Positions 1,665-60,234 of a stretch of DNA of 64,000 nt are shown here, in pieces. The notes beneath the pieces were generated by a model. The model saw only the letters and a list, made by a program, of their open reading frames with translations, was not told the DNA's origin and searched no databases. Numbering within the stretch: position 1 is the first letter of the stretch; each line of letters begins with the position of its first letter. The stretch is from an uncultured virus (IMG/VR IMGVR_UViG_3300046500_000156) (Duplodnaviria; Heunggongvirae; Uroviricota; Caudoviricetes; Schitoviridae): the IMG/VR virus record IMGVR_UViG_3300046500_000156. One strand, given 5' to 3'. The position numbers and the translations under genes were made by a program.

Positions 1665-2117
1665 AGCTGCAAGGTAGTTTTTACCCGGTGCAAACATCGT
1701 ATGGAAAGCATAATAACTAAAGCTGGCCTAAATGTTAACTGGGTGACAGAAACTTTTTCTGAGCGTAAGTTTGGGGAGTTGCAAAACGGGTACAACCGCT
1801 ACATTTTTTGCTTGATTCCTGCACAGCCTTATACAGCAAGGGATTGCGCCGTCTCATCACATTTCGTGACATGACGATTCGTATGAACGTAGAGGTATCT
1901 TGGTGGAACATCCGAGGACTATCAGTGATCCGACAAAGCACGACTGTGCTTTGCAGGAATTACCGATGAATGTAACGAGATAGGGGCAACCCTTGGGAAA
2001 TTACAAACGCTTGCGGTAGACGGAAGCAGGACAGTACGGAGAGATTAGGACGAAACCTGTCCGGTTGCACAGGCCAACGGGCGGTGTTGGCCTGCAGCAA
2101 CATTACGTTTGATTACC

Positions 2118-3311
2118 TCATGAAAGGGCGTACTCCGTGTCGAGGACGTCCTGCCACATGGTGTCGTCGATCTTGTTGACTTCCACCTCCCGACCGAGGA
2201 TCTGGCGCACCAGGAACTGCAGCAGCCGGCTCTTGGCGATCAGTGCCAGTTGCAGGTTGTACTGGACACGCATGTCATTCCCGTAATTGGGCAGGCAGCG
2301 GAAGCAGTCATGCACTGTGAGGAGCTGGAAGGGCTTCTTCGGCAGCGAGTTGAGCAGCTCCCGGATCTCGACTTCGTCGACCAGATCGATGTTGTCGCCG
2401 TACAGGTGATCAAGGATGCGTGCTGACAGGTAGCCCGATTCCTTGAAGCGTGCCCACAGCGTCATCACCATCTCGTCGTCGGCGTCTTCTCCGATGGAGT
2501 CGTCACCTTCGAGCGCCGACCAGACGCGGCTGATGGTCGCAGGGTCGTAGTTGCAGCGGCGGTTCATCTCCCGCACGATCATGCCGTCGATGGAATGAAT
2601 CGTATTTGCGCCGAGGCTTCTGCCCTCCTCCTGCGGGGCGTTGACCTTGCGGAAGGTGTCGATGGGTTCGTTCAGGAAGTGCACACGCTCGACTTCCTCG
2701 CCCATCACCTTCACGTGCACGTGGAAGTTGTCCGGCAGCACCCAGCTGTTGATCAGCGCATTCGGATCCCACATCGAGAGGAACGCTTCGTTGAGCTCCC
2801 AGGCGTAGGGCGCTACCTCCTTCATGGTGTCGTAGAACATGGTGAGCAGACCACCTTCGCCGAAGACTTTCTTCGGGATGGCCTGCGACCCGTACAACGC
2901 GGTCATCACGGCTTCTTTAATGTCGGTGCGCTTGATGCGGCCCTCTTCACCGATCTTGTCCAGCATGGTCTGATAGATACCGGTGTAGGCATCTTCCCGT
3001 GAGCCAGAGGGAAGGACGTTACACAGTAACGCGGCCTTGCGGTCACCAGTCAGTGCGGCGAGGATCTGCAGACCCGATGACGTGGCATCGAGCGAGATGG
3101 GGTAGCCAGTGGCTTCGCCTCGCTGGCTCGCTTCATAGGCCTGCACCCCTGCGAAGTAGAGTGCCGGCGTCTCGGCCTGCGTAAGCAGCTCGTGCAGACG
3201 GTCCTTGTTGTCGTCGAACCAGGAAAGACGCTCATCCCACGTGCTCTTGTCCAGTCCGAAGTTCGAAGCGATGTCGATCTTGAGGTACTGCAGGCCAGTG
3301 AACTTTTGCAT
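2118..3311 (-). CDS. N4-like RNA polymerase II subunit 2 (gp16-like)
   Basis: T7-like motifs LDATSSGLQI, RTDIKEAVMTALYGS, NTIHSIDG, VHDCF; N-terminal FTGLQYLKIDIASNFGLDK. Confidence 0.95.
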   Translation of the reverse strand: MQKFTGLQYLKIDIASNFGLDKSTWDERLSWFDDNKDRLHELLTQAETPALYFAGVQAYEASQRGEATGYPISLDATSSGLQILAALTGDRKAALLCNVLPSGSREDAYTGIYQTMLDKIGEEGRIKRTDIKEAVMTALYGSQAIPKKVFGEGGLLTMFYDTMKEVAPYAWELNEAFLSMWDPNALINSWVLPDNFHVHVKVMGEEVERVHFLNEPIDTFRKVNAPQEEGRSLGANTIHSIDGMIVREMNRRCNYDPATISRVWSALEGDDSIGEDADDEMVMTLWARFKESGYLSARILDHLYGDNIDLVDEVEIRELLNSLPKKPFQLLTVHDCFRCLPNYGNDMRVQYNLQLALIAKSRLLQFLVRQILGREVEVNKIDDTMWQDVLDTEYALS

Positions 3312-3336
3312 GATGTGCTCTCTTTTTGAACGAACC

Positions 3337-3375
3337 AAAAGAAAAAGCCACCGGAGGTGAACTCACGGTGGCTTT
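3337..3375 (-). terminator. intrinsic terminator between the plasmid cassette and RNAP2
   Basis: AAAGCCACCG/CGGTGGCTTT stem with T-tract on the minus strand. Confidence 0.75.
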
Positions 3376-3465
3376 GAATTTGTAGTTGGTGTTGTCTTTT
3401 CTCTGGCTCCTCGAACGGCAGGCAGAGAATAGTCCGACCAGATGAATCTGTTTGTTAACCAGGCC

Positions 3466-3732
3466 TCAGATCTGTTTCATCTGGTCGATCATGTCTTCCA
3501 GCTGTTGGATCTTCTGCTGTATGGCGTCGAACCGTTGATTCACGCTCGCGTCGATCTGCGCACGGTCGCCTGCGTAATGCAGTACGAGTCCCATGCTGCC
3601 TTCGAGCGAGTTGACCTGGTTACCGAGACGCACGAAGTTCTCGCGCATCTCGGACTGCATCTTGTCGAACTTGGCCATGAGCTGATCCAGCCTGACCAGG
3701 ACGATGTTCTTCGGCTCTTCTGGCTCACTCAT
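3466..3732 (-). CDS. coiled-coil hypothetical protein (88 aa)
   Basis: Heptad-rich; ATGA overlap with upstream gene. Confidence 0.65.
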   Translation of the reverse strand: MSEPEEPKNIVLVRLDQLMAKFDKMQSEMRENFVRLGNQVNSLEGSMGLVLHYAGDRAQIDASVNQRFDAIQQKIQQLEDMIDQMKQI

Positions 3733-3962
3733 AGTTGGCCTCGATCTCGTTTGAACTTGTCCAGCAGCGCCTGCAGGCTTTGCCGGTTGAATGCGTCGAT
3801 GTCGCTCACGTCCACAGGCGGCAGCGGCTTGGCTGCATCGATCTTCTGCAGGCGCTTCAGGATCGGTGCGATCCGGCGCTGGTAGTCACGGTGCAGCTCG
3901 TTCAAGATCCAGCGCAGCTCCTGCTCTTCGGTTTCAAATCGTGGGATGTTTTCGATGGCCAT
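3729..3962 (-). CDS. hypothetical protein (77 aa)
   Basis: Coupled to the downstream gene; follows repL-like gene. Confidence 0.6.
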   Translation of the reverse strand: MAIENIPRFETEEQELRWILNELHRDYQRRIAPILKRLQKIDAAKPLPPVDVSDIDAFNRQSLQALLDKFKRDRGQL

Positions 3963-4029
3963 GTTCAGACTCTACTTGAGGTTCACTTCGTAGTCTGAGA
4001 CAGAACCAAGGGGATGTATACGCCGATGA

Positions 4030-4578
4030 TTAGGCGTGAAAGTCTAGCTGCGACTGTTCGGGCGGATCGTCGTTACCGAGCTCGGACCCAGCCACGATGA
4101 CATCTTCCTCCGGATGAATGATCGGCACCTGTTCGAGCTGTGGGCTCGGATCGGCCTGCGTGAACTTGTCCTGCTCGTCGAGATTGACGATGACTTCGGC
4201 CTGGAACGAGGCCCACTTCTCCCCGGCTCGTGTTGTCCAGAAGACAGACGAGTTGACGCGGTAGACGTTGGTCGTGCCAACCTTGAGCACCTCCACCCAC
4301 TTCTTCTCACGCAGCAGTGCGATGGCACGCTGCAAGGTGGGCCGGGTGAGATCGGCCAGCTTCATCAGGCTGTCCTGGCTCATGACCAGTGCATTGTGGC
4401 GGTCCATGGCCTTGACCAGTACCCACAGCAAGTAGTGCGCTTTCGAGGACTCCCGGCTCAGATCATTGAGCTTGTCGATTTGCTTACGATTGACTTGCAC
4501 GAAGTCGCGGTTGATCGCCCCATGCTTCAGGCGAGCCACCTCCCGGCGCAACTTTTCGTTCTCTTCAGCTGGTGTCAT
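4030..4578 (-). CDS. repL: plasmid replication/maintenance protein, RepL-like HTH
   Basis: DFVQV...LLWVLVKAMDRHNALVMSQDSL...TRPTLQRAIALLREKKW..V.KVGTTNVYRVNSSVFW, typical of the RepL family of small-plasmid Rep proteins; start chosen at MTPAEE. Confidence 0.75.
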   Translation of the reverse strand: MTPAEENEKLRREVARLKHGAINRDFVQVNRKQIDKLNDLSRESSKAHYLLWVLVKAMDRHNALVMSQDSLMKLADLTRPTLQRAIALLREKKWVEVLKVGTTNVYRVNSSVFWTTRAGEKWASFQAEVIVNLDEQDKFTQADPSPQLEQVPIIHPEEDVIVAGSELGNDDPPEQSQLDFHA

Positions 4579-4599
4579 GTTGGTTTTTCTCGTGATGTC

Positions 4600-4870
4600 G
4601 CTTGCATCATAGGCGAGAATGTGATGCACGTAAACTCATGGATGAGCCTGCGATACCGTGAAAATGAGGCAGATCCGCCTCATCTAGGATGAGGCATAAG
4701 GAAATCGCTGGGAGGCAATGCCGACAAGGGATTCCGGCGTAAACACAGGGCCTTCCCTTCTATGATCTAGGTTTACACAAGGAATTGAGCATCCCCGTGA
4801 TGGACAACTCACCTGCCCACAGCATGAAGCTGTGGACAGCCGGCAAGCCGGTACGTGAGTTCCCCACACT
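4600..4870. promoter_or_regulatory. putative plasmid replication origin
   Basis: Inverted repeats TGCATCA/TGATGCA (4603-4628), CTCAT/ATGAG (4635-4646), three alternating ATGAGGC copies (4664-4695), branched hairpin with DnaA-box-like sequences (4797-4869); directly upstream of repL. Confidence 0.55.
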
Positions 4871-4934
4871 TGAGCCTGACGCGGCCTGCGGCCTTGCCCA
4901 AATGAGATAGAGAGTCAAATTCAAAACCGGGCGG

Positions 4935-5282
4935 TCAATAGCCCTCCTTCTCGGCCTTTGCAATGATCTTGTCGATCTCCCGCTCGACCACTTCAGCGAC
5001 GAAGGTATAGGCGCTGTTGATGGCGCCCCAATTCTTCATCTCTTTGATCTTGGTTTGCACCCGCAGCGGCATCTCATAGTTCGTCTTTTTCCACTCATCC
5101 TGTCCTGGGCGGGTCCAGGCATACCTCCTTCCTTGCTTGGCTCCTTGGAAGGCGGCTTCCTTGGTTCCTTCCTTGGAGGGAGGCAAGGAGTCTTCCTTTC
5201 CTGGATCCAAGGTGGTGACAGCCGCACCCGCATTGCCTTTGCGGGCAATGACCGTGTTGTCGAGAGACGGGACTTTACTCAT
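4935..5282 (-). CDS. putative centromere-binding protein (type Ib ParA partner, ribbon-helix-helix-like)
   Basis: Overlaps the parA stop; low-complexity N-terminal tail with Arg (ARKGNA); C-terminal strand-helix-helix pattern WKKTNYEMPLRVQTKIKEM...SAYTFVAEVVEREI. Confidence 0.65.
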   Translation of the reverse strand: MSKVPSLDNTVIARKGNAGAAVTTLDPGKEDSLPPSKEGTKEAAFQGAKQGRRYAWTRPGQDEWKKTNYEMPLRVQTKIKEMKNWGAINSAYTFVAEVVEREIDKIIAKAEKEGY

Positions 5283-5913
5283 ACTGCACCCCCTTTCGAG
5301 GTTCGAACTTGGCCACAACGAACTTTGCAAGCTGATCGATCAAGATAGCACCCGTGCCTTTAGTGATTTCATTGATCGTCAGGCCGGCAGACATCGATTG
5401 CCAGTAGCCATTGAGCTTCGGAATAGTCTGCGGAATAACGGGACCGAACTCAGCTAACTTCTTGACGGCAGAGTTGGCGACAGCCAGCCCGTTCGTCTCA
5501 TTGAGCAGGTACATGAACTTCTTGCCTTCCTCTTCGCACAGATCCACCGTGGAGAGGGTGGCCTTGATATCGCCCTTGGAGTGCTTGGTGGGAATGATCA
5601 CCAGATCGGCCAGCTTGATGGCGGCCCGATTGATCGGGGCGGTTTGCGGTGGGGTATCGATCAGGAACCAGGACACCCCTCCTTTCACGAGTTGAGCGTG
5701 GCGCTCTCGAAGCTCGGCGGCATCCTTAATGTTGGTGAAAGCCGGCGTTTCAGCGTTGCGGTCATTCCACCAGTCAGCCAGTGTGCCTTGGGGATCCAGG
5801 TCGGTGATGACGACTGGTCCTTGGCCCATGGCCTCCAATGCCACGGCCAGGTGAGCCGTGTGCATGGTTTTGCCTACTCCGCCCTTGAGACAGGAGAAGA
5901 CGATGGTCTTCAT
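5275..5913 (-). CDS. parA: ParA/ParF-type partition ATPase (type Ib, no N-terminal HTH)
   Basis: Deviant Walker A KGGVGKT, DLDPQG, IDTPP, ADLVIIP; 212 aa; RBS GAGGAG. Confidence 0.93.
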   Translation of the reverse strand: MKTIVFSCLKGGVGKTMHTAHLAVALEAMGQGPVVITDLDPQGTLADWWNDRNAETPAFTNIKDAAELRERHAQLVKGGVSWFLIDTPPQTAPINRAAIKLADLVIIPTKHSKGDIKATLSTVDLCEEEGKKFMYLLNETNGLAVANSAVKKLAEFGPVIPQTIPKLNGYWQSMSAGLTINEITKGTGAILIDQLAKFVVAKFEPRKGVQYE

Positions 5914-5944
5914 GTGAACTCCTCGCAGGTTGGTTCAGTGCGGG

Positions 5945-5972
5945 ACTGTATACCAATCTACGAGGGAAGCAA
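5945..5972 (-). promoter_or_regulatory. sigma70-like promoter for the par-rep cassette
   Basis: TTGCTT-16 nt-TACAGT upstream of the parA RBS, flanked by CCTT/CTTG repeats. Confidence 0.45.
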
Positions 5973-6047
5973 GACTCCTTCAAGGGAAGGAGGAAGGGAA
6001 CCAAGGAGGGAGCTTTCCTTGGTTCCAAGAAATCAAGATTTCTTGAT
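5960..6047. repeat. centromere/operator-like repeat array upstream of parA
   Basis: AAGG/GAGG 4-bp periodic run, then TCCTTGGT-TCCAAGAA-ATCAAGAT-TTCTTGAT in 8-bp register (6016-6047). Confidence 0.65.
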
Positions 6048-6322
6048 TAGTAATGGATGGCTAGACGATCCAGCGCTTCCCGCATGGCGTTGGCAGCCAT
6101 GGCCGCCTGGCCCAGATTGATGGCCAGATCCGTGTTGCGGTTGCGCACCTGCATGGTGCCATCGTCCATCAGCTCCAGTGTCGCACCCTCGAAGAGGGTA
6201 CAGCCGATCTGAGCTTCTGCTTTGTCTTCCTGGCTCATGCGTTGATCGATGCCGGTACGAATCATTTTGCTGGTCTCATTCAGGGCGCTGTAGCGCCAGG
6301 TGGTTTGGGGTTGGTAAGTCAT
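6047..6322 (-). CDS. hypothetical protein (91 aa)
   Basis: ATGA overlap with upstream gene; starts MTYQPQ. Confidence 0.6.
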   Translation of the reverse strand: MTYQPQTTWRYSALNETSKMIRTGIDQRMSQEDKAEAQIGCTLFEGATLELMDDGTMQVRNRNTDLAINLGQAAMAANAMREALDRLAIHY

Positions 6323-6504
6323 TTCTTGATTTCTTGAATTCTTGATTTTTCGATGGCTTCGTCGATCTCTTTTACCAGCTTCTTCAGCGGGATCGTCACA
6401 GCCGGCTCCTCGTGTTGCCAGTAGCGATTGTGCAGGGCAGTGATCTCCCCGAGCAGCTCCTTGCGGATGCGCAGCAGGAGCTCCTTGGATACCAGGACGC
6501 TCAC
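6319..6504 (-). CDS. hypothetical protein (61 aa)
   Basis: GTGA overlap with RNAP1 stop. Confidence 0.6.
   Translation of the reverse strand: MSVLVSKELLLRIRKELLGEITALHNRYWQHEEPAVTIPLKKLVKEIDEAIEKSRIQEIKK
6323..6354. repeat. 8-bp box array
   Basis: TTCTTGAT-TTCTTGAA-TTCTTGAT-TTTTCGAT. Confidence 0.75.
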
Positions 6505-7310
6505 TGCACCACCTCCCCTTCAGCCATCTCCACAACCGCCTTGCACCAGGCCGTGGACTGGTAGTTCACGTGGTAGCCCTGGGCATAGGTTCTACCCCTT
6601 TTGTCATACCTGTGGGTGAGGTGGAACTCGTTGCCTTCCCGAACAAGTAGATCGATGACAGCATGAGAAGTCTTGTCGTACTTTTCGAAAGCACGCTTGC
6701 GGCGTTCGAAGTCGGATCGGGTTTCCCCTTCCTTGGGTTTGTCGAGGTTTCTCCATTCATTGTTGATGAGCTTGGCCGTGTTGAAGTTGATCTTCAGGCG
6801 CATCTTGTTCAGACGGTTGAGGTGGTCCAGTGCCACATCGTCGTCGTGATGATTGTCCCGAAGGATGACGCTGCTGTTGTTCAGCAGATAGCCAGACTGC
6901 TTGTTGTGTCTGATCGGCTTCGGCTCCACCACCATGGGCAGTGGATACTGGAAGCGATCGATCTCCTCCTGCGTCTTGGCATCGATCTCGAAGATCACGA
7001 TGAACTGACGCAGGGGAATGTTGTAGGTGCACAGATCGGCTTCAGCGCAGCGAACCAGCAAGTCTGCTACTTCCTGAGCCGTCTTACAGTGGTGTCTCAG
7101 GCAGCCGACGAGCGTCTGCACGTCGCAACGCTTGTGCAGCGCCATCTGAACCAGGAGATCGATACCGAAGGCTTCGGGGATCTCCTTCTCCTTCAGGTGG
7201 GCGATGATCTCGGGCTCGGCCATGAACTCAGCCCGCATGCGGGGCATGAGCTGGTTCTTCGAAAAGAGGGCTTCGAGCTCTTGCTGGTGGGCGATTCTGG
7301 CTTCAGTCAC
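6501..7310 (-). CDS. N4-like RNA polymerase II subunit 1 (gp15-like)
   Basis: FQYPLPMVVEP, SGYL, YDKRGRTYAQGYHVNYQ motifs; 269 aa. Confidence 0.95.
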   Translation of the reverse strand: MTEARIAHQQELEALFSKNQLMPRMRAEFMAEPEIIAHLKEKEIPEAFGIDLLVQMALHKRCDVQTLVGCLRHHCKTAQEVADLLVRCAEADLCTYNIPLRQFIVIFEIDAKTQEEIDRFQYPLPMVVEPKPIRHNKQSGYLLNNSSVILRDNHHDDDVALDHLNRLNKMRLKINFNTAKLINNEWRNLDKPKEGETRSDFERRKRAFEKYDKTSHAVIDLLVREGNEFHLTHRYDKRGRTYAQGYHVNYQSTAWCKAVVEMAEGEVVQ

Positions 7311-7692
7311 GGTAACGCTCCTCGATGATGCGGATTGCCTGGAAACATTGGGCCGGCGTAAACATGCCGATATGACATTCGTAGACCGGTATGCCCATTT
7401 GCTCGGCCAGCCATTTGTAGGCTTGCCGTCGATTCATCTTTGCCTTCGCCATCCAGAGCGGATCGAAGGCTTCGTGGACTCGCATCTTTAGCTGACGCAA
7501 TGTGGCGTTGGCCAGAATGCCCAGTGGCCTGGTGCCATCGCCATACCCCTTGTTGGGTTCGTGACAGCCGACATAAGCCTCACATGGCAGACAGCGCCAG
7601 AAGTGCTTCTGCCACAGATGCTGCAAGCGAGGATAGATCTCCTTGCCGGTGACCGGCTCAGCAGGTTGGTTGCAGTAGTGGCAGGTGGTCAT
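7303..7692 (-). CDS. DUF3268-like zinc-finger protein
   Basis: CHYC...CLPCEAYVGCH...PLGILAN..LR...HEAFDPLW...AYKWLA...CHIGMF. Confidence 0.85.
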   Translation of the reverse strand: MTTCHYCNQPAEPVTGKEIYPRLQHLWQKHFWRCLPCEAYVGCHEPNKGYGDGTRPLGILANATLRQLKMRVHEAFDPLWMAKAKMNRRQAYKWLAEQMGIPVYECHIGMFTPAQCFQAIRIIEERYRD

Positions 7693-7697
7693 GGTTT

Positions 7698-7737
7698 TCC
7701 TTGGTTCCTTGAATTCTTGAAATCAAGATTTCTTGAT
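7698..7737. repeat. 8-bp box array
   Basis: TCCTTGGT-TCCTTGAA-TTCTTGAA-ATCAAGAT(inverted)-TTCTTGAT in exact register. Confidence 0.8.
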
Positions 7738-7959
7738 TTATGCAGCAATGGCGCCGAGCTCCTCGAACGTGACCGTGCGCTTGACCAGCCGGACAGTGGG
7801 GTGCACACCCGGTCGCTTGTTGCGGGCTTCGAGCCACTTCTCAGCAGCCTGGCGATCCTTGAAGCTGTGGATCATGTGGTTGCCCTGGCTCACGAGGATG
7901 AGCTCTTCCTGGCTCAGCAGCTGGTCTCCGAGGGATTTCTGGATCTTGGTGGACAGCAT
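7738..7959 (-). CDS. hypothetical protein (73 aa)
   Basis: ATG after AAGGA; operon context. Confidence 0.6.
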   Translation of the reverse strand: MLSTKIQKSLGDQLLSQEELILVSQGNHMIHSFKDRQAAEKWLEARNKRPGVHPTVRLVKRTVTFEELGAIAA

Positions 7960-7965
7960 GTTCTT

Positions 7966-7989
7966 TCCTTGAATTCTTGATTTCTTAAT
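7966..7989. repeat. 8-bp box array
   Basis: TCCTTGAA-TTCTTGAT-TTCTTAAT. Confidence 0.7.
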
Positions 7990-8310
7990 TTAGGCAGACT
8001 GTTCCATCGCCTGCTTGATGACAGCCAGCACAGCCTGCCCGCGGTAGTCATTGAACCTGTCGGGCACGACGATGCGGACCATCTTGTCGCCGGCCTGGAT
8101 GGCCTCAACGATTCGGGTCATCTCGGCAATCACCTGTTCATCACTCTGAACAGCCGAATAAAGCCAATCGATGTACTCCTCCTTGGGTAACTCCCGGTAC
8201 AGAACTGAACCGGGCATCACCTCAAAGTAAACTCTGTTGGGCCAACGTCCCTCAGAGTTGGAGATAGTGAAGGGATTGTTAGACAGTTGTGGATGTTGCT
8301 GCATGTTCAC
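7990..8310 (-). CDS. hypothetical protein
   Basis: ORF in early operon. Confidence 0.6.
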   Translation of the reverse strand: MNMQQHPQLSNNPFTISNSEGRWPNRVYFEVMPGSVLYRELPKEEYIDWLYSAVQSDEQVIAEMTRIVEAIQAGDKMVRIVVPDRFNDYRGQAVLAVIKQAMEQSA

Positions 8311-8605
8311 GTACCCATTGAATGCGTTGTTCGTTGAGGTGTTTGCTATTCGTCACCTTCTCCCGCCCGAATTGCTGGACACTTCCGTTATTGAAGGGAA
8401 AGGTGGGATCCAATCCAGCAGCTACGAACTGGTGATCCATTTCTTCCAGGAGAGCGTCTGTACCCGTTTTGCCTGTTGCACTGATCCATTCGACGGCAGA
8501 CCAGCACAGTCCACGTTGGCGACTGAAGATGATTCCTTCCGGAGCACCTGCATCCAGCCAGCCGGCATAGGCCTGGTAGAACTGGGTCAAGAGTTCAGAT
8601 TGCAT
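8279..8605 (-). CDS. hypothetical protein, paralog B
   Basis: QSELLTQFYQAY..WL...FSR..GLC...RIQWVREH. Confidence 0.7.
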   Translation of the reverse strand: MQSELLTQFYQAYAGWLDAGAPEGIIFSRQRGLCWSAVEWISATGKTGTDALLEEMDHQFVAAGLDPTFPFNNGSVQQFGREKVTNSKHLNEQRIQWVREHAATSTTV

Positions 8606-8921
8606 GGTCTTTCACCCATTGGATACGAGCAGGGTTGCGGTGAGCTTCGCCACGATCCACTTCACGGTTGTAGTGCTGTGTCGTTTGATTAAACGGATGC
8701 CAGAAGAGAGTGCAGTAGCCCATGAACTGCTGCGTCAGTTCTTCTTTCAGATCGGGATACTCGATCTGGGCGTTTCGGTTGGCCCATTGACGCAGCGCAC
8801 CACACAATCCGTGGTAGCGGCTGAACTGCATGAGGTCTTCACGAGCACCACCTTCTAACCATTGCAGGTACGCACGGTAGAACTGGGTGAGTAGCTCGCT
8901 CTGTTCTTTTCCTTGGCTCAT
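8595..8921 (-). CDS. hypothetical protein, paralog A
   Basis: QSELLTQFYRAY..WL...FSR..GLC...RIQWVKDH; start at MSQGKE. Confidence 0.7.
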   Translation of the reverse strand: MSQGKEQSELLTQFYRAYLQWLEGGAREDLMQFSRYHGLCGALRQWANRNAQIEYPDLKEELTQQFMGYCTLFWHPFNQTTQHYNREVDRGEAHRNPARIQWVKDHAI

Positions 8922-8934
8922 GTCTTTCCCTGAT

Positions 8935-9240
8935 TCAGGTGGGTACACACATCCGATACGCATCCACTTCGGACTCCGGCACCACCTTGTAGATGGTGTT
9001 CTGGGATTCGTATTCCTGGTTCGAGTGGTCGATATGCACGAGGATGGTGGTGCGGATCTCTTCGCCATACATGAAGACGCGGTGATTGTCCTGACCGTCT
9101 TCAGCCTTGGGCTTGTCGGCCACCATCACCGCTTTGAGCACGAACTTACCTTCCATGCTTCGGCCAGCCATAGGCCAGATCTCAGTGGCCGGCACGAGTC
9201 GAGCATTGGTGACGAACGCCACCTTCTTTCCTTGGCTCAT
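8935..9240 (-). CDS. hypothetical protein (101 aa)
   Basis: ORF in early operon. Confidence 0.65.
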   Translation of the reverse strand: MSQGKKVAFVTNARLVPATEIWPMAGRSMEGKFVLKAVMVADKPKAEDGQDNHRVFMYGEEIRTTILVHIDHSNQEYESQNTIYKVVPESEVDAYRMCVPT

Positions 9241-9242
9241 TT

Positions 9243-9282
9243 TTCTTGGTTCCTTGATTTCAAGAATTCTTGATTTTTCGAT
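9243..9282. repeat. 8-bp box array
   Basis: TTCTTGGT-TCCTTGAT-TTCAAGAA(inverted)-TTCTTGAT-TTTTCGAT. Confidence 0.8.
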
Positions 9283-9297
9283 TCAACACAAACGCGA

Positions 9298-9322
9298 GAA
9301 AGTTCGCCCACGGCGAACTTTC
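9298..9322. repeat. perfect 11-bp hairpin
   Basis: GAAAGTTCGCC-CAC-GGCGAACTTTC. Confidence 0.7.
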
Positions 9323-9339
9323 GAGGCAGGGTAGGGCGC

Positions 9340-9861
9340 TTACACGCCTTCGAACTGATTGACCATCGCCGTCATTTCTTCCTGCTCATCCTCGAAGGCG
9401 ATGTTGTAAGACGGGATGCCGTAGTGCGTGGCCAGACTCACGGCGTTGCCGGTGCCGCCCTGCACATGCCGGCTCGGCGCCCAATAGGCCACGAACCTGA
9501 CCGGGTCATCGAGCTGGGGACCGAGGATGATGGACACGTTCCTCATCATCAGTCGCTGCGCACCCTGCGTGATCGAATCCCAGCGTGGGTGCACGAGCTG
9601 GGCAATCCTCCTGAGCGCGGGCGAATCGGGCGAGACATAGAATCCCTTGCCCTGTCCCTGATTGAATCCGTGCCACGGCAGGTAGATCTCCCGGTGATGC
9701 TGGTCATGGCCCTGTGCCCAGGCCTGATCGGCGCCTTCGGCATGGCCTGACCTGAGTGTCCAGCCCATTTTGTTGAGCTCACAGGCTGCGTTGAACATCC
9801 GGGTGCAGATGTCGTGAGGCGTTTTCCGAGGGCCGATTCCTGCGTATTTCAGTGTGCTCAT
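9340..9861 (-). CDS. SLOG/DprA-like protein
   Basis: YAGIGPRKTP, LRSGHAEGADQA, EIYLPW..FN, GGTGNAV. Confidence 0.8.
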   Translation of the reverse strand: MSTLKYAGIGPRKTPHDICTRMFNAACELNKMGWTLRSGHAEGADQAWAQGHDQHHREIYLPWHGFNQGQGKGFYVSPDSPALRRIAQLVHPRWDSITQGAQRLMMRNVSIILGPQLDDPVRFVAYWAPSRHVQGGTGNAVSLATHYGIPSYNIAFEDEQEEMTAMVNQFEGV

Positions 9862-10021
9862 AGTCTTTGGGCTATCTATGGTCGAAAACCGTCCTCCACC
9901 CCTACTTAGGGTTTTGGAAGTTGGACTATCAATTAGAAATAAATAGGAGGAAAGCGGCATTGTAGCCACTCTCCTCCAAAAGGTGTTTACTGCGTTGTTT
10001 TTGTGATTGTGTGCGTTGCAG

Positions 10022-10426
10022 TTACGCGGCCTTCTCCACCAGACTCAGGTTGATGGCGAACGGGTTCTCGTCAGGCTTGACGCTGACTTCGGTGGTCTCC
10101 TTCACCCTTCTGAGTTGGACTTTGAGGTCGATGAGCACGTCCTCGCCCGGACTCATCGTCTCGGCATACTCCTTCAACTGCTCGACGATGGAGTTGCGTG
10201 CAGCCTGCATCTGGGCAAACTCCTTGTTGGAGCTGCGGGTGTCGAGCGGATCCTGCGTGTCCAGCGGAATGCCCAGCGGCAGGGACAGGAAAATGTCGTC
10301 GCCGTTGACTTCCTTCACGATGCCGACATTCAGCCAGAATTGCGCCTTCGGACGATCCTTCTTGTTGCTGGTCTCGGCTGCGTTGTTATTCTTGTTGCCG
10401 AAGAGGTTCTTGGATTCGATGGGCAT
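10022..10426 (-). CDS. N4 gp2/Drc-like ssDNA-binding RNAPII cofactor
   Basis: KAQFWLNVG...FLSLPLGIPLD...ARN...VQLRRV...NPF; early position. Confidence 0.85.
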   Translation of the reverse strand: MPIESKNLFGNKNNNAAETSNKKDRPKAQFWLNVGIVKEVNGDDIFLSLPLGIPLDTQDPLDTRSSNKEFAQMQAARNSIVEQLKEYAETMSPGEDVLIDLKVQLRRVKETTEVSVKPDENPFAINLSLVEKAA

Positions 10427-10491
10427 GATATTTCCTGAGAGATTTGAGAGAGAGATGCGGAGCGGGATCGCCCCATAAAAACGATGAAACG

Positions 10492-10572
10492 TTACTGACG
10501 GTCTTGCTGAAGCTGTGCTTCGATGTCTTCTACGAGGTCAAAGGGAAGATCATCGAGCAGTTCTTGAGACAT
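10492..10572 (-). CDS. small acidic peptide (26 aa; not in ORF track)
   Basis: MSQELLDDLPFDLVEDIEAQLQQDRQ; RBS AGGTG; first ORF after the hairpin promoter at 10628. Confidence 0.5.
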   Translation of the reverse strand: MSQELLDDLPFDLVEDIEAQLQQDRQ

Positions 10573-10624
10573 GAAAGCACCTGAACAAACGAAAAAGATT
10601 GAGAGAATGGGGAGCTGAGAGACT

Positions 10625-10645
10625 CCCCAACAGCCGCGTAGCGGC
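10625..10645 (-). promoter_or_regulatory. vRNAP hairpin promoter 3
   Basis: Template (+) strand CCCC-AACA-GCCGC-GTA-GCGGC; same geometry as N4 promoters (+1 C, 4 nt, 5-bp stem, GNA triloop). Confidence 0.85.
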
Positions 10646-10652
10646 CAGCAGC

Positions 10653-10922
10653 CTAGGCGAACAGCTTGCGCTTCTTGAAGTACGCAACCATTTCAGCCTC
10701 GGAGCGTGCGTATTGCGCAGCGATGTACTGAAGGGTGACGACGCGGCCAATCTGGGCAAGCTCGTCCTGGATCTGCGTGTGATCCAGTCCTCGTGCCCAT
10801 GAATCTCCGATGAGTTCGTCGGTCGAGTACAGACGGTTGAGTGCCTCGCTACTTTGCTTACCGTAGGCACGAACGTGATGCACATGCTCTTGGCCAAGAC
10901 GGCCGGTGTAATGGAGCGTCAT
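10653..10922 (-). CDS. hypothetical early protein (89 aa)
   Basis: RBS AAGGA before ATG. Confidence 0.65.
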   Translation of the reverse strand: MTLHYTGRLGQEHVHHVRAYGKQSSEALNRLYSTDELIGDSWARGLDHTQIQDELAQIGRVVTLQYIAAQYARSEAEMVAYFKKRKLFA

Positions 10923-10940
10923 ATTCCTTTCCTTGGCTCA

Positions 10941-10972
10941 GAAATGAAAAAGGCCAGCGTAGTAGCTGGCCT
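10941..10972 (-). terminator. intrinsic terminator
   Basis: AGGCCAGC/GCTGGCCT stem plus TTTTTCATTT on the minus strand. Confidence 0.7.
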
Positions 10973-10993
10973 ATGTGTTTGATTCTGTTGCGA

Positions 10994-11218
10994 TTACTTG
11001 TTGCGGATCAACTGAGCATACAGCACATGAAGTTCATCGAGCTCCGAGTCGATGTCCCGGTCGTAATCATGCTGCGTGAGTGATTGATACTGCCCAACTT
11101 CCAGCGCCGGCTTGTCTGCGGTGTACGGTGCAATGCGCTCGGCGCAGATGACTAGTGCGGCACGGATTTGTTCTTGCGTTGCTTTATCGCTGGCGACGAG
11201 CTTGATCGAGAATTCCAT
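10994..11218 (-). CDS. hypothetical early protein (74 aa)
   Basis: AAGGAG RBS; starts MEFSIK. Confidence 0.65.
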   Translation of the reverse strand: MEFSIKLVASDKATQEQIRAALVICAERIAPYTADKPALEVGQYQSLTQHDYDRDIDSELDELHVLYAQLIRNK

Positions 11219-11433
11219 GTTCTTTCTCCTTGGTTCAAACGATTTGATATTGGGTGCAAGCGTAAAAGCGCTTGAGCACGGATTGTAGATGCTGTTCGTC
11301 CATCGCCCGCACACAGAAGGTGCGGCCCGAGGTGAGCGAGCGGACACGAAAGAAGGCCATGGCCTATCCTCTCAATGGACTATCTCAGGGGAAAGCGCCA
11401 GCCCGCTAGGGCTAGGCGCAGCGCACCACCGAC

Positions 11434-11628
11434 TCAGTGCGTGGAGTACCACGGCTGATTGATCGACCACGACAGCCCGAGAAGCATGAGGCCGCCGACT
11501 ACACCAAGGACATCGGACCACGGATTGAACGGATGCAGCACGCCTACTGCCATGAGCACACCCATGAAGATGAAGCAGATGCCCATGACACCGAAAATGA
11601 ACGAGAACAGCACGTCGATTGCACGCAT
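11434..11628 (-). CDS. small two-TM membrane protein (64 aa)
   Basis: GGAGG RBS; two hydrophobic stretches. Confidence 0.65.
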   Translation of the reverse strand: MRAIDVLFSFIFGVMGICFIFMGVLMAVGVLHPFNPWSDVLGVVGGLMLLGLSWSINQPWYSTH

Positions 11629-11690
11629 ACAGCCTCCAGAAATGAAAAAAGACCAATGGATGAACCCAAGATGGCTCATCGATTGGCCCT

Positions 11691-11726
11691 AAAAAGGAAT
11701 GGCCCAGCCTCCGAAGAGACCGAGCC
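11691..11726 (-). terminator. intrinsic terminator with UUCG loop
   Basis: GGCTCGGTCTC-TTCG-GAGGCTGGGCC followed by ATTCCTTTTT. Confidence 0.6.
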
Positions 11727-11735
11727 AACGATTTG

Positions 11736-12074
11736 TTACGCCGGTTGCAGACCGATGTTGTGCGACTTGAGCAGCGCACCGATGCGATCCACAGCCGACT
11801 TGTACTGATCCGTGTACTTCTGATTCTTGTCGAGGAACTCGTCTACACCCTTCTGACGGACGATCTCCTCCATGGCTGCTTCCTGCTGCAAGGTGACGGC
11901 CAGCGATTCCAGACGCACCACATTGCGAGCACGCTGCTCGAGCGATGCCACCTTCACATACTCATCCAACATGCCGATGCCCTGAGTGACCGTACCCAAG
12001 GTCGTGCTGACTGCCACTGCTGCATCCGTGACCGTGCCCAGAACCGTGCCAAACGTCATGCGAGTCGTGCTCAT
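11736..12074 (-). CDS. N4 gp1-like early protein
   Basis: Thr/Val-rich N-terminus (TFGTVLGTVT...GIGML), about 110 aa, first gene after a vRNAP promoter. Confidence 0.7.
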   Translation of the reverse strand: MSTTRMTFGTVLGTVTDAAVAVSTTLGTVTQGIGMLDEYVKVASLEQRARNVVRLESLAVTLQQEAAMEEIVRQKGVDEFLDKNQKYTDQYKSAVDRIGALLKSHNIGLQPA

Positions 12075-12161
12075 GATGAACTCCAATTAGAACCAAGTTT
12101 GAGGAAGAAGGTCCAGCCTAGGATTTAGGCTGAACCCAGAAAAAGAGCGGATTCAAATGCA

Positions 12162-12181
12162 CCCAACAACTGCGTAGCAGT
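12162..12181 (-). promoter_or_regulatory. vRNAP hairpin promoter 2
   Basis: CCC-AACA-ACTGC-GTA-GCAGT on the template strand. Confidence 0.85.
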
Positions 12182-12264
12182 AGGACAGTAATCACTGAGT
12201 TACCACTCGATCAGCACTCACCCTCTATTAGGAGGAGCTGAGTGTGTACTCAGCGTGTATTCAG

Positions 12265-12420
12265 TTAGAACGGAATGTCCGAATCATCGGATGAACCGTA
12301 GTCGATGATGATCTCAACTACCTCATCACACTCACCACACTCAGGACTGTGATCACACATGTAGTCAGACATGTCATCCCAACCCATTCCCATTGCCTCA
12401 ACCTCATGTGCATACAGCAT
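12265..12420 (-). CDS. small acidic Cys/His protein ending DDSDIPF (51 aa)
   Basis: GGAGG RBS; directly downstream of hairpin promoter 1. Confidence 0.7.
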   Translation of the reverse strand: MLYAHEVEAMGMGWDDMSDYMCDHSPECGECDEVVEIIIDYGSSDDSDIPF

Positions 12421-12458
12421 GACCAGCCTCCGATGATTGAATAGCTCAGCACTGAGCA

Positions 12459-12477
12459 CCGCCAGTCGCGTAGCGAC
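12459..12477 (-). promoter_or_regulatory. vRNAP hairpin promoter 1
   Basis: CC-GCCA-GTCGC-GTA-GCGAC on the template strand. Confidence 0.8.
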
Positions 12478-12479
12478 AG

Positions 12480-12750
12480 CGATGCCACAGGCATCAGCGA
12501 CGTGTACGTGTACCAGCCTCAATACATAGGGGTGGCCTGCGAATACAGAGAGAACAGGCATACCGGGGGGGGTAGTGTGCGTGTGTAAAGCCGGAGGGCC
12601 ACACACTGCTACAAGACCTAGCTATGAGAATTCCTGGAAACCGTTGCCTATTTTTTAGGCACTCGCTCGAGCGGGGCGGTCCAAAAAATTGGCCAGAATT
12701 TTTTCTGTATAGGCGAGGTTATTGCTCAGAATTCCCAGATCATCAGGGAG
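12480..12750. other. probable genome terminus / terminal-repeat junction region
   Basis: Divergence point of early (minus) and terminase/late (plus) genes; G8 run at 12565-12572; AAAAAATT-GGCCAG-AATTTTTT palindrome at 12683-12704. Confidence 0.55.
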
Positions 12751-12756
12751 AAAACC

Positions 12757-13050
12757 ATGACAGAAGCGGACTTCGTAGCCAATCTGGGCATACTGTTGCG
12801 CGATCAACCTCGCTTCACGGCGGCTGAGTTGACGGACTGGGCGGTGGCTTACTGGGATGGGGATCGGGTTCAGTTCGTCTTACTGGACGAAGAAGGCCAG
12901 GATCTGGATGAGGGATTCGAGCTCGATGACTTCATCTGGGCGCCCTTGGCGGAGCCGTTTTCCTCCTGGCTCAAGCGTCCTGTGTTCTCCAGGCGCCAGC
13001 AGCTGCAGGACTGGCTGATGGACGCACCGCCGATAGAATCCGGAATCTGA
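12757..13050 (+). CDS. hypothetical protein (97 aa)
   Basis: GGGAG RBS. Confidence 0.65.
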   Translation: MTEADFVANLGILLRDQPRFTAAELTDWAVAYWDGDRVQFVLLDEEGQDLDEGFELDDFIWAPLAEPFSSWLKRPVFSRRQQLQDWLMDAPPIESGI

Positions 13051-50435: not shown

Positions 50436-50615
50436 TCATCTTACCGTAGGTGGGCCAGGGGGAGGATCATCCTCGTCTTTCCCCTGGCTCAGTACGGCGT
50501 AGACTACCCCCACTGCCACAATGCCCATGGCGATGTAGGGGGCTGCTGCGATGATGGCAACTGTGAGACCAACCACAGCCGCCACCACGAGGATGACGAC
50601 TGCCAGCGGATTCAT
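50436..50615 (-). CDS. small two-TM membrane protein (59 aa; not in ORF track)
   Basis: MNPLAVVILVVAAVVGLTVAIIAAAPYIAMGIVAVGVVYAVL...; TGATG coupling. Confidence 0.6.
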   Translation of the reverse strand: MNPLAVVILVVAAVVGLTVAIIAAAPYIAMGIVAVGVVYAVLSQGKDEDDPPPGPPTVR

Positions 50616-51130
50616 CAGCTGTTCGACACGCGCTTCAGATTGCCGAAGAGGCTACGGCCTGCGGGCTTCGCTTCTGCCGACTGGTCTTGCTCAGCTTGCG
50701 GTTCCGTCGAGCTCGGCTCGGCTGCTGCTTCGCTGCCAGGGCCAGCAGTCTCGGTACTCGTCGAGTCCGAAGTCTCGATCATCCCCTCGACGGGCGGCTC
50801 TTCTGCCGGCGTCTCTGCCTTTCCCTGGCTGACCGGCACTTCCGCTTCCGGCGTGAACGTCGGGAGTTCGACTGCCTTCGGTGCCGGCGTTTCCTTCTTC
50901 ACTTCGACGGTCTTGGTGACCGGCTTGGCAATCGGGGCTGCCGGCGCTTCTGCCTTGACCGGTGCTGCGGCCTTAGCCGGCACGATGTCGATGGTGGCCA
51001 TGAAGCCCGCTTCACCACGGGTAGCCTTCAGGTCAATCTCGACATCCATGCCTTCCTTGATGCTCATCTGGTTGAGGATGAGGTCTTTGATGGCCTGCTT
51101 GATTTCTGCTTCGACGATGATGATCTGCAT
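50615..51130 (-). CDS. conserved N4-like protein with Pro/Glu/Ala-rich tail
   Basis: MQIIIVEAEIKQAI...IDL.ATRG..G..ATIDI; ends RSLFGNL. Confidence 0.75.
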   Translation of the reverse strand: MQIIIVEAEIKQAIKDLILNQMSIKEGMDVEIDLKATRGEAGFMATIDIVPAKAAAPVKAEAPAAPIAKPVTKTVEVKKETPAPKAVELPTFTPEAEVPVSQGKAETPAEEPPVEGMIETSDSTSTETAGPGSEAAAEPSSTEPQAEQDQSAEAKPAGRSLFGNLKRVSNS

Positions 51131-51132
51131 CT

Positions 51133-51690
51133 TTACACCTTTGCGAAAAGTCGCATGAGATTTTGAAACATGGGTGTCTGCACACCCGCGTGAATGGCTG
51201 CTATGGCGTCTGCGCAATGTTCTGCTTTCGCGGCGCTGATCTTGCCGTTGTGCACGGGGAAGTTCGCTGCCGGATACTCCGTTACTGCCTGGGCGATCAT
51301 CTGTTTCTTGGTGGCGTCTTTCTTGCCCGTGAAGATCTCCTTCACGTCCAAGGCGCTCACCTGGATGATCTCGTGGCCTTCTGCTCGAAGGGCACCGAGC
51401 ACCCCACAGACGATCCCGTAGGACTTCATGCCGTAGGCCGATTGGGATCCAACCGGCACTTCGACGAAGATCACCTTGGACCGGCGTGCAGCGGGGAACA
51501 CCCCTTTGCACAGCGTCGTGGCCAGGTGGACATCACTGGAGTTCTGGCGAACCTGCTTCCCTTCGAGATCCTCCCCCTGAACCAGGGAGAGGATCGGTGT
51601 ATCAAGCACGCCAGAATCCAGATCCAGGTCAGCTTCTGCGATCCCCCAATTTCTCATTGAGGGATCCATGCCGCAGACACGGATCTTCAT
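51133..51690 (-). CDS. RuvC-like Holliday junction resolvase
   Basis: VCGMDPS.RNWG, FVEVP.GSQ, ATKKQMI, EH.ADA. Confidence 0.88.
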   Translation of the reverse strand: MKIRVCGMDPSMRNWGIAEADLDLDSGVLDTPILSLVQGEDLEGKQVRQNSSDVHLATTLCKGVFPAARRSKVIFVEVPVGSQSAYGMKSYGIVCGVLGALRAEGHEIIQVSALDVKEIFTGKKDATKKQMIAQAVTEYPAANFPVHNGKISAAKAEHCADAIAAIHAGVQTPMFQNLMRLFAKV

Positions 51691-51694
51691 GGCG

Positions 51695-52474: not shown

Positions 52475-52520
52475 AATGTTTTCTTTTGGTTCCGTTGATT
52501 GATGTTTTGAGTTCGTTGGT

Positions 52521-53291: not shown

Positions 53292-53352
53292 GTGTTTCTC
53301 CCTGTGCTACCCCTCTCCTTGAGCCAAGGAAAGGGATCAGCGTCTGTCGATG

Positions 53353-56522: not shown

Positions 56523-56573
56523 GAGGAGTGCTCAAAAAGGAATGTGGAAAGGCAGCCGAACCAGGGAAAGGAA

Positions 56574-57113: not shown

Positions 57114-57115
57114 GA

Positions 57116-57466
57116 TCAGAGCCCGCCCTTGATGACCGACATCACCTTCTTGGCTGCGCTCTCGTCCACCTTCGGAGGCGCGAGGAACTCGTCCTCGGTC
57201 ATGAAGCCGAGCGTGACGATGTTGTTGATCACCACATCGACGATGTCGATGGTCTGGAACTCTTCGCCGAGCTTCTTGAGCAGCTGCATCTGTACGGCCT
57301 GCTGCGCCTTGCCGATCATGGCCGAAGGAAGCTGGTCCTTGTCGCCCGTGATGGTGGCGTTCAGCGGAACCGAAGACGGCTGTGCGTTCTCGACACCCTT
57401 CACATGGAAGACGATGGTGGCCGAGACGAGGAAGAAGAAACGTTTCTTGGATGCGGGAGCTTTCAT
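57116..57466 (-). CDS. conserved N4-like hypothetical protein
   Basis: VVI.NI..LG.MT..EF motif; position after polymerase. Confidence 0.7.
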   Translation of the reverse strand: MKAPASKKRFFFLVSATIVFHVKGVENAQPSSVPLNATITGDKDQLPSAMIGKAQQAVQMQLLKKLGEEFQTIDIVDVVINNIVTLGFMTEDEFLAPPKVDESAAKKVMSVIKGGL

Positions 57467-57598
57467 GTGGGCCTCAATTGATGAAGAAGGGGAGCCGGTT
57501 TCCCTTGGCTCCCCTCAAACTTATTTCTAATGGACGGATGATAAAGGACGATTTCAGCGGTGTCTAGCGGTTAACTGCAACCCCAAACAAACCTCTAA

Positions 57599-60220: not shown

Positions 60221-60234
60221 CTCGTGAAGCTCCT

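Follow-up and report, generated by a model that had tools for sequence, protein, structure and literature searches.

Dispersed 8-bp-periodic box arrays at early gene starts of an N4-like phage as predicted sites of a ParG-type partition protein

Introduction

The stretch of DNA considered here, which is referred to as the window in its full length of 64,000 nucleotides, belongs to an uncultured virus (IMG/VR record IMGVR_UViG_3300046500_000156) and represents an N4-like phage (Schitoviridae), in which the early region consists of minus-strand genes that run from about position 12600 down to 1. In this region five arrays of short boxes are found, one upstream of parA, the gene for a small partition ATPase, and four at the start codons of early genes. 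These arrays are a real and well delimited feature, which is evident from the boxes, their common register, their placement, their link to the partition (par) cassette across phage backbones, and their variation by whole units. They are most likely sites of a partition protein of the type of TP228 ParG, with an unusual dispersal onto early gene starts, and the candidate reader of the boxes is the 115-aa protein that is encoded directly after parA and is called the ParA partner in the following.

Five arrays on one 8-bp register

In gene sense, that is on the minus strand, the array unit reads (T/C)CAAG(A/G)A(A/T), or it is inverted and carries CTTG at the same four positions, so that all boxes stand on one 8-bp register regardless of their orientation. 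The arrays consist of 4-bp CAAG/CTTG boxes with centres at 8-bp distance and AT-rich 4-bp spacers, and the spacing of neighbours within an array is always 8. Array A has four exact boxes, B two, C five, D three and E four, and one degenerate distal unit is added in each of A, B and D, which gives a total of about 20 boxes that are spread as five arrays over 3.3 kb. The word TYCTTGRW has 61 matches in the window, compared with 14.9 expected ones, and the two-unit word, when up to three mismatches are permitted, has 19 matches versus 1.3 expected, 16 of them inside the five arrays. Arrays with at least three in-register exact boxes occur four times, versus 0.02 times per shuffle. Thirteen of the 20 box pairs at spacing 8 fall into positions 5900-9300, and the other seven are close to the simulated background of 5.6. 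The window has a G+C content of 57% and contains only nine AT-rich islands (at least 75% A+T over 28 bp), five of which are the arrays. No further arrays are found elsewhere within the 64 kb, with about 13 kb of the genome lying outside the window, and none is present in the nearest record (G001), a 21.6-kb fragment that does not overlap the array region. The original prediction, which had described five 8-bp-periodic arrays with some inverted units and had noticed none elsewhere, is thus borne out by the box positions, the absence elsewhere holding within the 64 kb.

All five arrays are given here in the order of transcription, with the sense of the minus-strand genes and with box positions on the plus strand. 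Array A (9243-9282) has boxes at 9245, 9253, 9261 (inverted) and 9269, one degenerate unit, and the palindrome CAAGAATTCTTG. It is located just downstream of a terminator-like hairpin (9312-9293) and precedes an early gene of 101 aa (8935-9240, ATG at 9240, minus strand). Array B (7966-7989) has boxes at 7968 and 7976 and one degenerate unit, and it occupies the 30 bp that separate a stop codon (7990-7992) from the ATG at 7959 of an early gene of 73 aa (7738-7959, minus strand). The genes behind A and B both have homologues in L001-L003, three related contigs that are described below. Array C (7698-7737), with boxes at 7700, 7708, 7716, 7724 (inverted) and 7732, contains CAAGAAATCTTG and takes up the space from a stop codon (7738-7740) to the ATG at 7692 of a DUF3268 zinc-finger gene (7303-7692, minus strand; Pfam E 4.7e-31). 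This gene precedes RNAP1 (6501-7310, minus strand; phrog_2166 E 7.8e-101), which encodes the N4 gp15-like subunit of the phage RNA polymerase II (RNAPII) and is read from 7310 to 6501, so that A, B and C are upstream of RNAP1 in transcription order. Array D (6323-6354) consists of direct boxes at 6325, 6333 and 6341 and one degenerate unit; it adjoins the ATG at 6322 of a 91-aa gene (6047-6322, minus strand) with homologues in L001 and L002, and it is situated inside the 3' end, that is the last codons, of a possible 61-codon open reading frame (ORF; 6319-6504). Array E (6016-6047, or 5970-6047 when the operator is included) has boxes at 6018, 6026 (inverted), 6034 (inverted) and 6042, begins at the stop codon of the preceding gene, and is upstream of parA, the ATG of which is at 5913. 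The distance to the start codon is 4 nt for array A, 8 nt for B, 7 nt for C and 2 nt for D, and the genes behind these arrays are conserved in relatives or have a Pfam family. The placement that had been described from the sequence, with one array upstream of parA, four abutting early start codons, and three of these upstream of RNAP1, was confirmed in all respects.

Strain variants of the arrays were obtained from contigs of four other rhizosphere metagenome runs that cover the array region. Many of these contig pieces are identical to the window across the arrays. Run X4 has a 16-nt insertion, which is exactly two units, in array B after position 7974 at full contig depth. In two runs (X3 and X4) the stretch 7290-7695, which comprises the DUF3268 gene, is replaced by 23 letters, and on the gene strand these represent a start codon, ATG, and six codons that join codon 8 of RNAP1 in frame, as worked out by hand. 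In a second variant, position 7304 is joined to 7696 via 13 letters, again in frame. The variants that lack DUF3268 keep array C, which now is placed directly on the RNAP1 start. The arrays therefore change by whole units and stay with the gene start, not with the gene behind.

Association of the arrays with the partition cassette

Four IMG/VR contigs encode the partner protein (L001-L004). Three of them, L001-L003 (75-79 kb), are N4-like and have the order RNAP1, small genes, ParA, partner, RNAP2, the latter being the gene of the other RNAPII subunit. The fourth contig, L004 (45.6 kb), encodes DNA polymerase I, an exonuclease, a T7-lysozyme-like protein and an integrase, and its backbone is not N4-like; the L004 cassette (7694-10911) holds ParA, partner and a replication initiator together and adjoins the integrase. 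Upstream of parA, L004 has in addition a 95-aa gene with a sequence pattern that looks strand-helix-helix by eye. When a profile of the C-terminal 64 residues of the partner was compared with 1.84 billion representatives, 16 proteins were found that led to two further loci, L019 (54 kb) and L020 (42.6 kb). L020 resembles L004, and the cassette of ParA, partner and replication initiator is also present in L019 and L020, which are contigs of 43-54 kb that are not N4-like. Their partner proteins are 43% (L019) and 39% (L020) identical to that of the window, and their ParA proteins 69% and 61%.

A relaxed scan, which required at least four boxes at 8-bp steps with one miss allowed and at least two exact boxes, found six arrays in the early region of the window, namely the five described above and a repeat inside the partner gene. 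The same scan of the partner-encoding loci resulted in three arrays each in L001, L002 and L003 and one in L004, with 0-0.05 in simulations, and it found no array in any of seven N4-like loci without par genes (L005, L006, L008, L009, L011, L012 and L013; L010 was omitted as a duplicate of L009), although all seven keep RNAP1 and RNAP2. It had been suggested to look whether the arrays co-occur with the cassette or are equally present in relatives that lack it; arrays were found in all five of the partner loci that were scanned first and in none of the seven par-less loci, so that the second pattern was not observed. L019 and L020 have no period-8 array outside the partner gene, and in the non-N4 carriers no array was found away from parA. 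Over the whole contigs of L001-L004, three-box arrays are confined to the early/par region. Remote arrays are fewer in the N4-like relatives than in the window and always abut start codons: L001 has two and L003 has one, which are located between RNAP1 and parA, and the single one of L002 stands immediately ahead of the small gene in front of RNAP1. The RNAP1 of the par-less Erwinia phage Ea9-2 is 65% identical to that of the window, while the values for the array-bearing L001 and L003 are 60% and 65%. As the Ea9-2 protein is as close as those of L001 and L003, the confounding effect of common descent is weakened, but it is still present. This comparison of loci supports the view that the arrays associate with the par cassette, across at least two phage backbones, rather than with the N4 backbone.

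Beyond these loci, relatives of the partner or of ParA were found neither in the scanned metagenome contigs nor in genome contigs (one genome per prokaryote species), and a tblastn search with the partner gave no relative in GenBank phages or PLSDB. A different par system on an N4-like phage is present in L018 (NZ_CP110465.1), the closed 75-kb circular Acinetobacter baumannii plasmid pRBH2-3, which is an N4-like phage with an N4-gp56 capsid and a polymerase-size gene of 3646 codons. It possesses its own unrelated par cassette at 9346-10997, consisting of ParA, a 102-aa protein and a helix-turn-helix protein. The first 45 kb of L018 contain no periodic arrays (lags 7-12) and no CAAG arrays, which is neutral with respect to the role of the arrays in the window. 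The GenBank phage vB_IME_Ab2712 (74.6 kb) encodes a ParA that is 34% identical to the L018 ParA.

The parA upstream region and the shared palindrome

The region upstream of parA, with its boxes, is what all carriers share. CAAG/CTTG boxes crowd the parA upstream region in all seven partner loci (the window, L001-L004, L019 and L020), and 36 of the 38 spacings between neighbouring boxes in these regions are multiples of 4, while this applies to 232 of 702 spacings in the remainder of these loci (binomial p 1.6e-15). Repeat boxes that resemble centromeres or operators are hence found immediately upstream of the par operon in 7/7 loci, as is typical of type Ib partition systems. In the window, array E extends in register to exact boxes at 6002 and 5970, and a palindrome with 11-bp arms spans its boxes 6018 and 6002; array E with the operator has a fold z of -5.3. 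Box 5970 likely overlaps the putative -35 element of the parA promoter, the promoter being assigned from the alignment of upstream regions. This putative promoter is weak in the window (TTGCTT - 16 nt - TACAGT) and reads TTGCAT - 16 nt - TACCGT in L001-L003, as taken from the alignment. The alignment comprises five parA-upstream regions and reveals a conserved CCAAGGAA, a spacer, and a CCTTGG pair with the core kept, and also a conserved CTTGC(A/T)T word, which would correspond to the -35 element.

The same region is connected to the early gene starts by a 12-bp palindrome, CAAGA(A/T)(A/T)TCTTG (CAAGAWWTCTTG), of which the window contains exactly three copies, in arrays A, C and E (expected 0.02). 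L020 contains the word CAAGAAATCTTG in two copies, which are both located upstream of parA, and the remainder of the contig has none. A word that marks parA in this distant cassette is thus found in the window at parA and at two early gene starts, and these palindrome-bearing starts are 1.7 and 3.2 kb away from parA.

ParA and its partner protein

The parA gene (5275-5913, minus strand) encodes a small Walker-type partition ATPase of 212 aa (Pfam AAA_31/CbiA/MipZ; phrog_164 E 1.2e-32). Its alignment with NF041546 covers positions 2-200 of the 203 profile positions with a score of 113, which does not reach the cut-off of 180. As in type Ib partition systems, the protein is a small Walker ParA (about 200-230 aa) without an N-terminal DNA-binding domain. 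The gene of the 115-aa partner (P0001; 4935-5282, minus strand) follows directly and overlaps with parA. Only 13 close homologues of the partner are found in 5.8 billion clusters. When the family was compared with Pfam, neither ParG nor ribbon-helix-helix (RHH) models were matched at E up to 10 (13 members) or at E up to 1 (14 wider members), and by sequence the partner is therefore not a member of the ParG family. Residues 1-50 are disordered in both structural models that were calculated and contain S/T-K-E repeats. At 5128-5211 of the window this disordered tail is encoded by CCAAGGAA-like words with periods of 12 and 28, and likewise in L001-L003 and L019; these words may represent repetition at the protein level or further binding sites within the gene.

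A first AF2 (AlphaFold2) model, based on the 13 close sequences, consisted of a disordered region 1-51 and a two-helix hairpin, and it was judged less reliable than a second model that was based on an alignment of 14 more diverse sequences with a mean identity of 38%. The second model has a strand-helix-helix arrangement at residues of about 64-113, with an extended segment (64-72), a helix (73-84), a loop and a second helix (91-113). Its predicted local distance difference test (pLDDT) values are about 90-96 over the helices, and the block means are 89-96 from residue 71 on and 72 for residues 61-70. In an exhaustive structural search of 48,161 chains, the top neighbours of this model were Vibrio ParD2 (Z 5.2, root-mean-square deviation (rmsd) 2.7, 48 aligned residues) and Mesorhizobium ParD (Z 5.2, rmsd 2.1, 49 aligned), followed by PrpA (with an RHH domain in the title), TacA, CopA, NikR, TraM and the ribbon-helix-helix domain of PutA. 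The omega repressor is also among the neighbours (1irq, Z 3.9; 2bnw, Z 3.9) and, at a lower position, the centromere-binding ParB of pCXC100 (Z 3.3). The ribbon-helix-helix fold is stated outright in four titles of the neighbour list, and it is presumably shared by the remaining neighbours. Structural neighbours in the ESM Atlas mostly belong to RHH_1/CopG/ParD clusters. The would-be recognition strand (K-x-N-Y/F-E) is nearly invariant across the family, including the 13 close homologues, which accords with the invariant CAAG box. On balance, the C-terminal domain of the partner is likely RHH-like. The RHH assignment in the original prediction accordingly stands in part: the second model, the ribbon-helix-helix neighbours and the disordered tail speak for it, whereas the hairpin of the first model and the lack of a sequence match do not.

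Weighing of the evidence and alternative explanations

Taken together, we think it likely that the arrays are binding sites of the 115-aa ParA partner, as predicted from their layout and distribution. That they serve in partition has, in our estimation, an even chance, and that they repress or gate early transcription is possible, although we rather doubt it. Several results weigh against these assignments. On the protein side, the partner matches no Pfam family, and its profile has no match among PDB sequences. Foldseek and the exhaustive search with the first model gave only generic helical hairpins and no ribbon-helix-helix protein, and with the second model Foldseek found nothing at E <=0.001 and a ParD chain at E 9.2. 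As the model changes with the alignment, the fold call is alignment-dependent, and Z values of 3-5 for a domain of 48 residues are low and may reflect a common arrangement only. On the side of the DNA, the boxes upstream of parA are spaced by 8 and 12 bp in the non-N4 carriers, so that a strict 8-bp period is no constant of the family. An array upstream of RNAP1 is present in the window and L002 only, which means that a control of RNAP1 is not conserved in the clade. A sigma-70 scan found no promoter-like site at A-D, and a classical repression by an operator over a promoter is thus not evident there. The co-occurrence rests on a few related genomes, namely four N4-like carriers, the window included, and three others. 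Finally, the unit next to the start codon also reads as a Shine-Dalgarno (SD)-like word (AAGGA/AAGAA), which the original prediction had left out of consideration, and A-D are as RNA unstructured A-rich leaders (z 0.36, 0.88, -1.0 and 1.06), so that the location of four of the five arrays at start codons could be explained by a role in translation without any DNA-binding protein.

Such a role is the alternative that survives best. The arrays would act as RNA, in that A-rich unstructured leaders with tandem SD-like words raise or tune the translation of four early genes; the arrays would have arisen by slippage of an SD-bearing 8-mer, and they would resemble the parA operator merely as a side effect of a CCAAGGA ribosome-site context that both have in common. 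It fits with this explanation that the remote arrays of the window and of L001-L003 all end 2-14 nt before a start codon, that other early genes have single CCAAGGA(A/G)A words as their ribosome sites (near 10930 and 11227), that A-D are devoid of RNA structure, and that the unit number varies in slippage-like steps. However, the inverted CTTG units hold the 8-bp register in A and C, which is not needed in an SD repeat, and array E has the same words about 60-130 nt upstream of parA and ahead of its likely promoter. In late and middle genes, AAGGA or GGAG is used with no C in front of it and no arrays, array D is built solely of CAAGAA units and leaves 2 nt to the ATG, which is a poor geometry for a ribosome site, and the 12-bp palindrome is also present at the parA site of a different phage. 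We consider it quite unlikely that the arrays function in this way.

It can also be envisaged that the arrays are promoters of phage polymerases. They could be AT-rich promoters from which RNAPII transcribes middle genes, or the palindromes of A, C and E could form hairpin promoters for the virion RNA polymerase. As mentioned before, the arrays represent five of nine AT-rich islands and are located at gene starts, array A is positioned behind a terminator-like hairpin, where a restart of transcription is plausible, and A, C and E can form hairpins of 5-8 bp. In the part of the N4 literature that deals with this step, middle promoters are AT-rich and become melted before RNAPII loads (PMC4496689). 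According to the same source, the virion-polymerase promoter of N4 contains short inverted repeats that enclose a GC-rich heptamer with its centre at -11, and it has C at +1 and needs G at -10 and -8 (PMC4496689). The palindromes of A, C and E are instead AT-rich and have AAAT/AATT in the middle, and inverted repeats are lacking in B and D, so that the arrays do not have the features of N4 virion-polymerase early promoters. They do not match middle promoters of N4 RNAPII either, as far as can be judged from an indirect test with no consensus for this clade to compare: no array is found among the replication genes (50600-64000) or the late genes, the seven par-less N4-like loci lack arrays despite their RNAP1 and RNAP2, and the same boxes are present on a phage that is not N4-like and that, within the sequence covered, encodes no such polymerases. 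A function as phage promoter therefore appears very unlikely.

A binding of another factor can be regarded as highly improbable, because ParA and the partner are the only proteins that all seven loci share. Such a factor could be the 91-aa protein, the winged-helix Rep-like protein, or a nucleoid protein of the host with a preference for phased AT-rich DNA. An array precedes the 91-aa gene in the window and in L001, and this gene is conserved in L001 and L002; the 95-aa gene upstream of the L004 parA with its apparent strand-helix-helix pattern could be taken as another candidate. However, tblastn detected no homologue of the 91-aa protein in L003, L004, L019 and L020, which all bear boxes, and none of the Rep-like protein of the window in L001-L004, and variants and relatives that have arrays lack the DUF3268 protein.

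Comparison with known partition systems

Sites of a ParG-type partner that have dispersed onto the starts of phage early genes are thus, with reasonable though not high confidence, the best overall explanation, and the closest known counterpart is TP228 ParF-ParG. There, OF contains eight and parH twelve degenerate ACTC tetramers with 4-bp AT-rich spacers in direct and inverted orientation, and one ParG dimer occupies each box, with 20 boxes in all, as far as the account of these sites goes (PMC3130281). ParG is described there as a ribbon-helix-helix core with flexible N-terminal tails, and at least eight repeats are needed for an efficient centromere activity (PMC3130281). Both systems have a small Walker ParA that is followed by a small protein with a flexible tail and an RHH-type domain, the latter being a prediction in the window. 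The likeness to ParG sites that had been proposed from the sequence is evident in the layout of boxes and spacers (PMC3130281), since 4-bp boxes, 4-bp AT-rich spacers, both orientations, an extension up to the par promoter and a number of about 20 boxes are features of both. Unlike in TP228, the partner lacks sequence similarity to ParG, and the box is CAAG instead of ACTC. The five arrays are spread over 3.3 kb rather than being united in one block of about 160 bp, four of them abut phage early start codons, and the replicon is an N4-like phage.

A second system with a similar logic is pSM19035, in which omega is an RHH partition adaptor and repressor, and repeat arrays at several promoter regions double as centromeres. 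The likeness to delta-omega is that the omega repressor is among the structural neighbours of the partner model, as already noted. Omega recognizes 7-bp heptads (title of PDB 2bnw), in contrast to the 8-bp period with 4-bp boxes in the window. Also, no recognisable host promoter is located at the arrays described here, with the exception of parA.

Centromere sites that lie among phage genes and influence late gene expression are known from N15. This phage lives as a low-copy plasmid and uses SopAB with four separate centromere sites, IR1-4, according to the relevant part of the published description (PMC7205306). It is therefore alike in possessing several separate centromere sites, to which the several arrays as predicted sites correspond. 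It differs in that its system is of type Ia with a large helix-turn-helix ParB, that its sites are single palindromes and not tetramer arrays, and that N15 is lambdoid and not N4-like.

A possible role in partition and early expression

If the partner is the reader of the boxes, it would be a centromere-binding protein with a flexible N-terminal tail and an RHH-like C-terminal domain, and, by analogy to ParG, one dimer would bind per CAAG/CTTG tetramer, with neighbouring dimers coating an array cooperatively. Array E with its boxes up to the -35 element would then be the operator and the primary centromere of the par operon, as suggested by its position and its conservation in seven loci, and the box on the -35 element could permit an autoregulation of parA. 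Arrays A-D may be satellite copies that have arisen in N4-like carriers within the few intergenic gaps of the early operon, and they could enlarge or multiply the partition complex. The start-proximal unit would double as a ribosome-binding site, and the sites perhaps have spread by duplication of 8-bp units that already held an SD word of the AAGGA type. As A-D are placed across the early transcription path to RNAP1, the level of the partner could restrain or gate early expression by a roadblock or by local occlusion.

In N4 only that end of the DNA which enters first carries promoters of the virion polymerase, and genome entry is aided by early transcription, as described in the section of the literature on this process (PMC4496689); it may be speculated that arrays within the first 6.5 kb or so could for this reason act on incoming genomes. 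In its furthest extension the proposal is that the partner is a lifestyle switch, which coats the arrays on the RNAP1 operon start and two upstream starts and thereby stalls the early-to-middle relay and possibly the entry of superinfecting genomes, while the arrays also serve as centromere, so that the phage could settle as a plasmid without a classical repressor. We regard this as rather unlikely. In that case the partner would be supplied by the early operon, its gene being flanked by those of the two RNAPII subunits. N4-like phages are commonly considered to be strictly lytic. A 2023 survey in mSystems discusses, in the part concerned with lysogeny, only the integrase-type for N4-like phages (PMC10654107), and in full-text searches for N4-like or Schitoviridae phage-plasmids none of the titles and abstract openings describes such a phage. 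If the proposed functions are correct, a plasmid partition module would have been borrowed and wired into a phage gene programme via operator copies in early intergenic gaps, one of them on the gene for the phage middle RNA polymerase. This would offer a testable route to a plasmid-type persistence, and perhaps immunity, in a lytic-type phage. It would also represent a second natural tetramer-box array system beside TP228, with an undescribed protein family and a different box.

Phage backbone and genes around the cassette

RNAP2 (2118-3338, minus strand; Pfam RNA_pol; phrog_2051 E 1.3e-164) encodes the N4 gp16-like subunit of RNAPII, and RNAP1 and RNAP2 are the two subunits of the phage middle RNA polymerase. 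Further genes of the window encode terminase, major head protein, tail proteins, DNA polymerase, primase and a rIIB-like protein; the ORF of the virion RNA polymerase has 3626 codons, and the replication (middle) genes cover 13 kb at 50600-64000. Erwinia phage Ea9-2 and Achromobacter phage Axy10 have one or two small genes between RNAP1 and RNAP2. The insert at this position of the window consists of the possible 61-codon ORF, the 91-aa gene, the genes for ParA and the 115-aa partner, a Rep-like gene and two small genes. In the N4-like contig L011, a 2.4-kb insert (1683-4128) without a ParA homologue is present between RNAP1 and RNAP2, which suggests that this junction may be a hot spot of insertion. 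A terminator-like hairpin with a T-run is found at 3348-3360, just 5' of RNAP2, and likewise before RNAP2 in L001 and L003, so that RNAP2 may escape read-through from the par-rep insert.

The Rep-like protein (4030-4578, minus strand) is a winged helix-turn-helix (wHTH) protein, and its gene has its own sigma-70-like promoter and a palindrome upstream. The non-coding stretch 4600-4934 between the partner gene and this gene contains two palindromes, one at 4664-4683 with a third half-site and one at 4813-4839, in addition to the sigma-70-like promoter (4634-4606), and it may be an operator or an origin for the Rep-like protein. DnaA boxes are present in the window at background level only, and a comparison of 3300-12900 with Rfam gave no match at E up to 1.

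At 12606-12757 the late and early genes diverge, and this is where genome ends of the N4 type would lie; the window as well as contigs from other runs continue across this junction, and an AT-rich island (12683-12711) is located inside it. When the early region was examined for phage promoter motifs that recur, only conserved words with a single copy were found. One 10-bp word, CCTAAGT(A/T)GG, occurs once per genome upstream of a DprA-like gene and behind a terminator-like hairpin (window, 9901-9910; L001, 4481-4490; L002, 4699-4708; L003, 4100-4109), and it may be a phage-specific promoter element.

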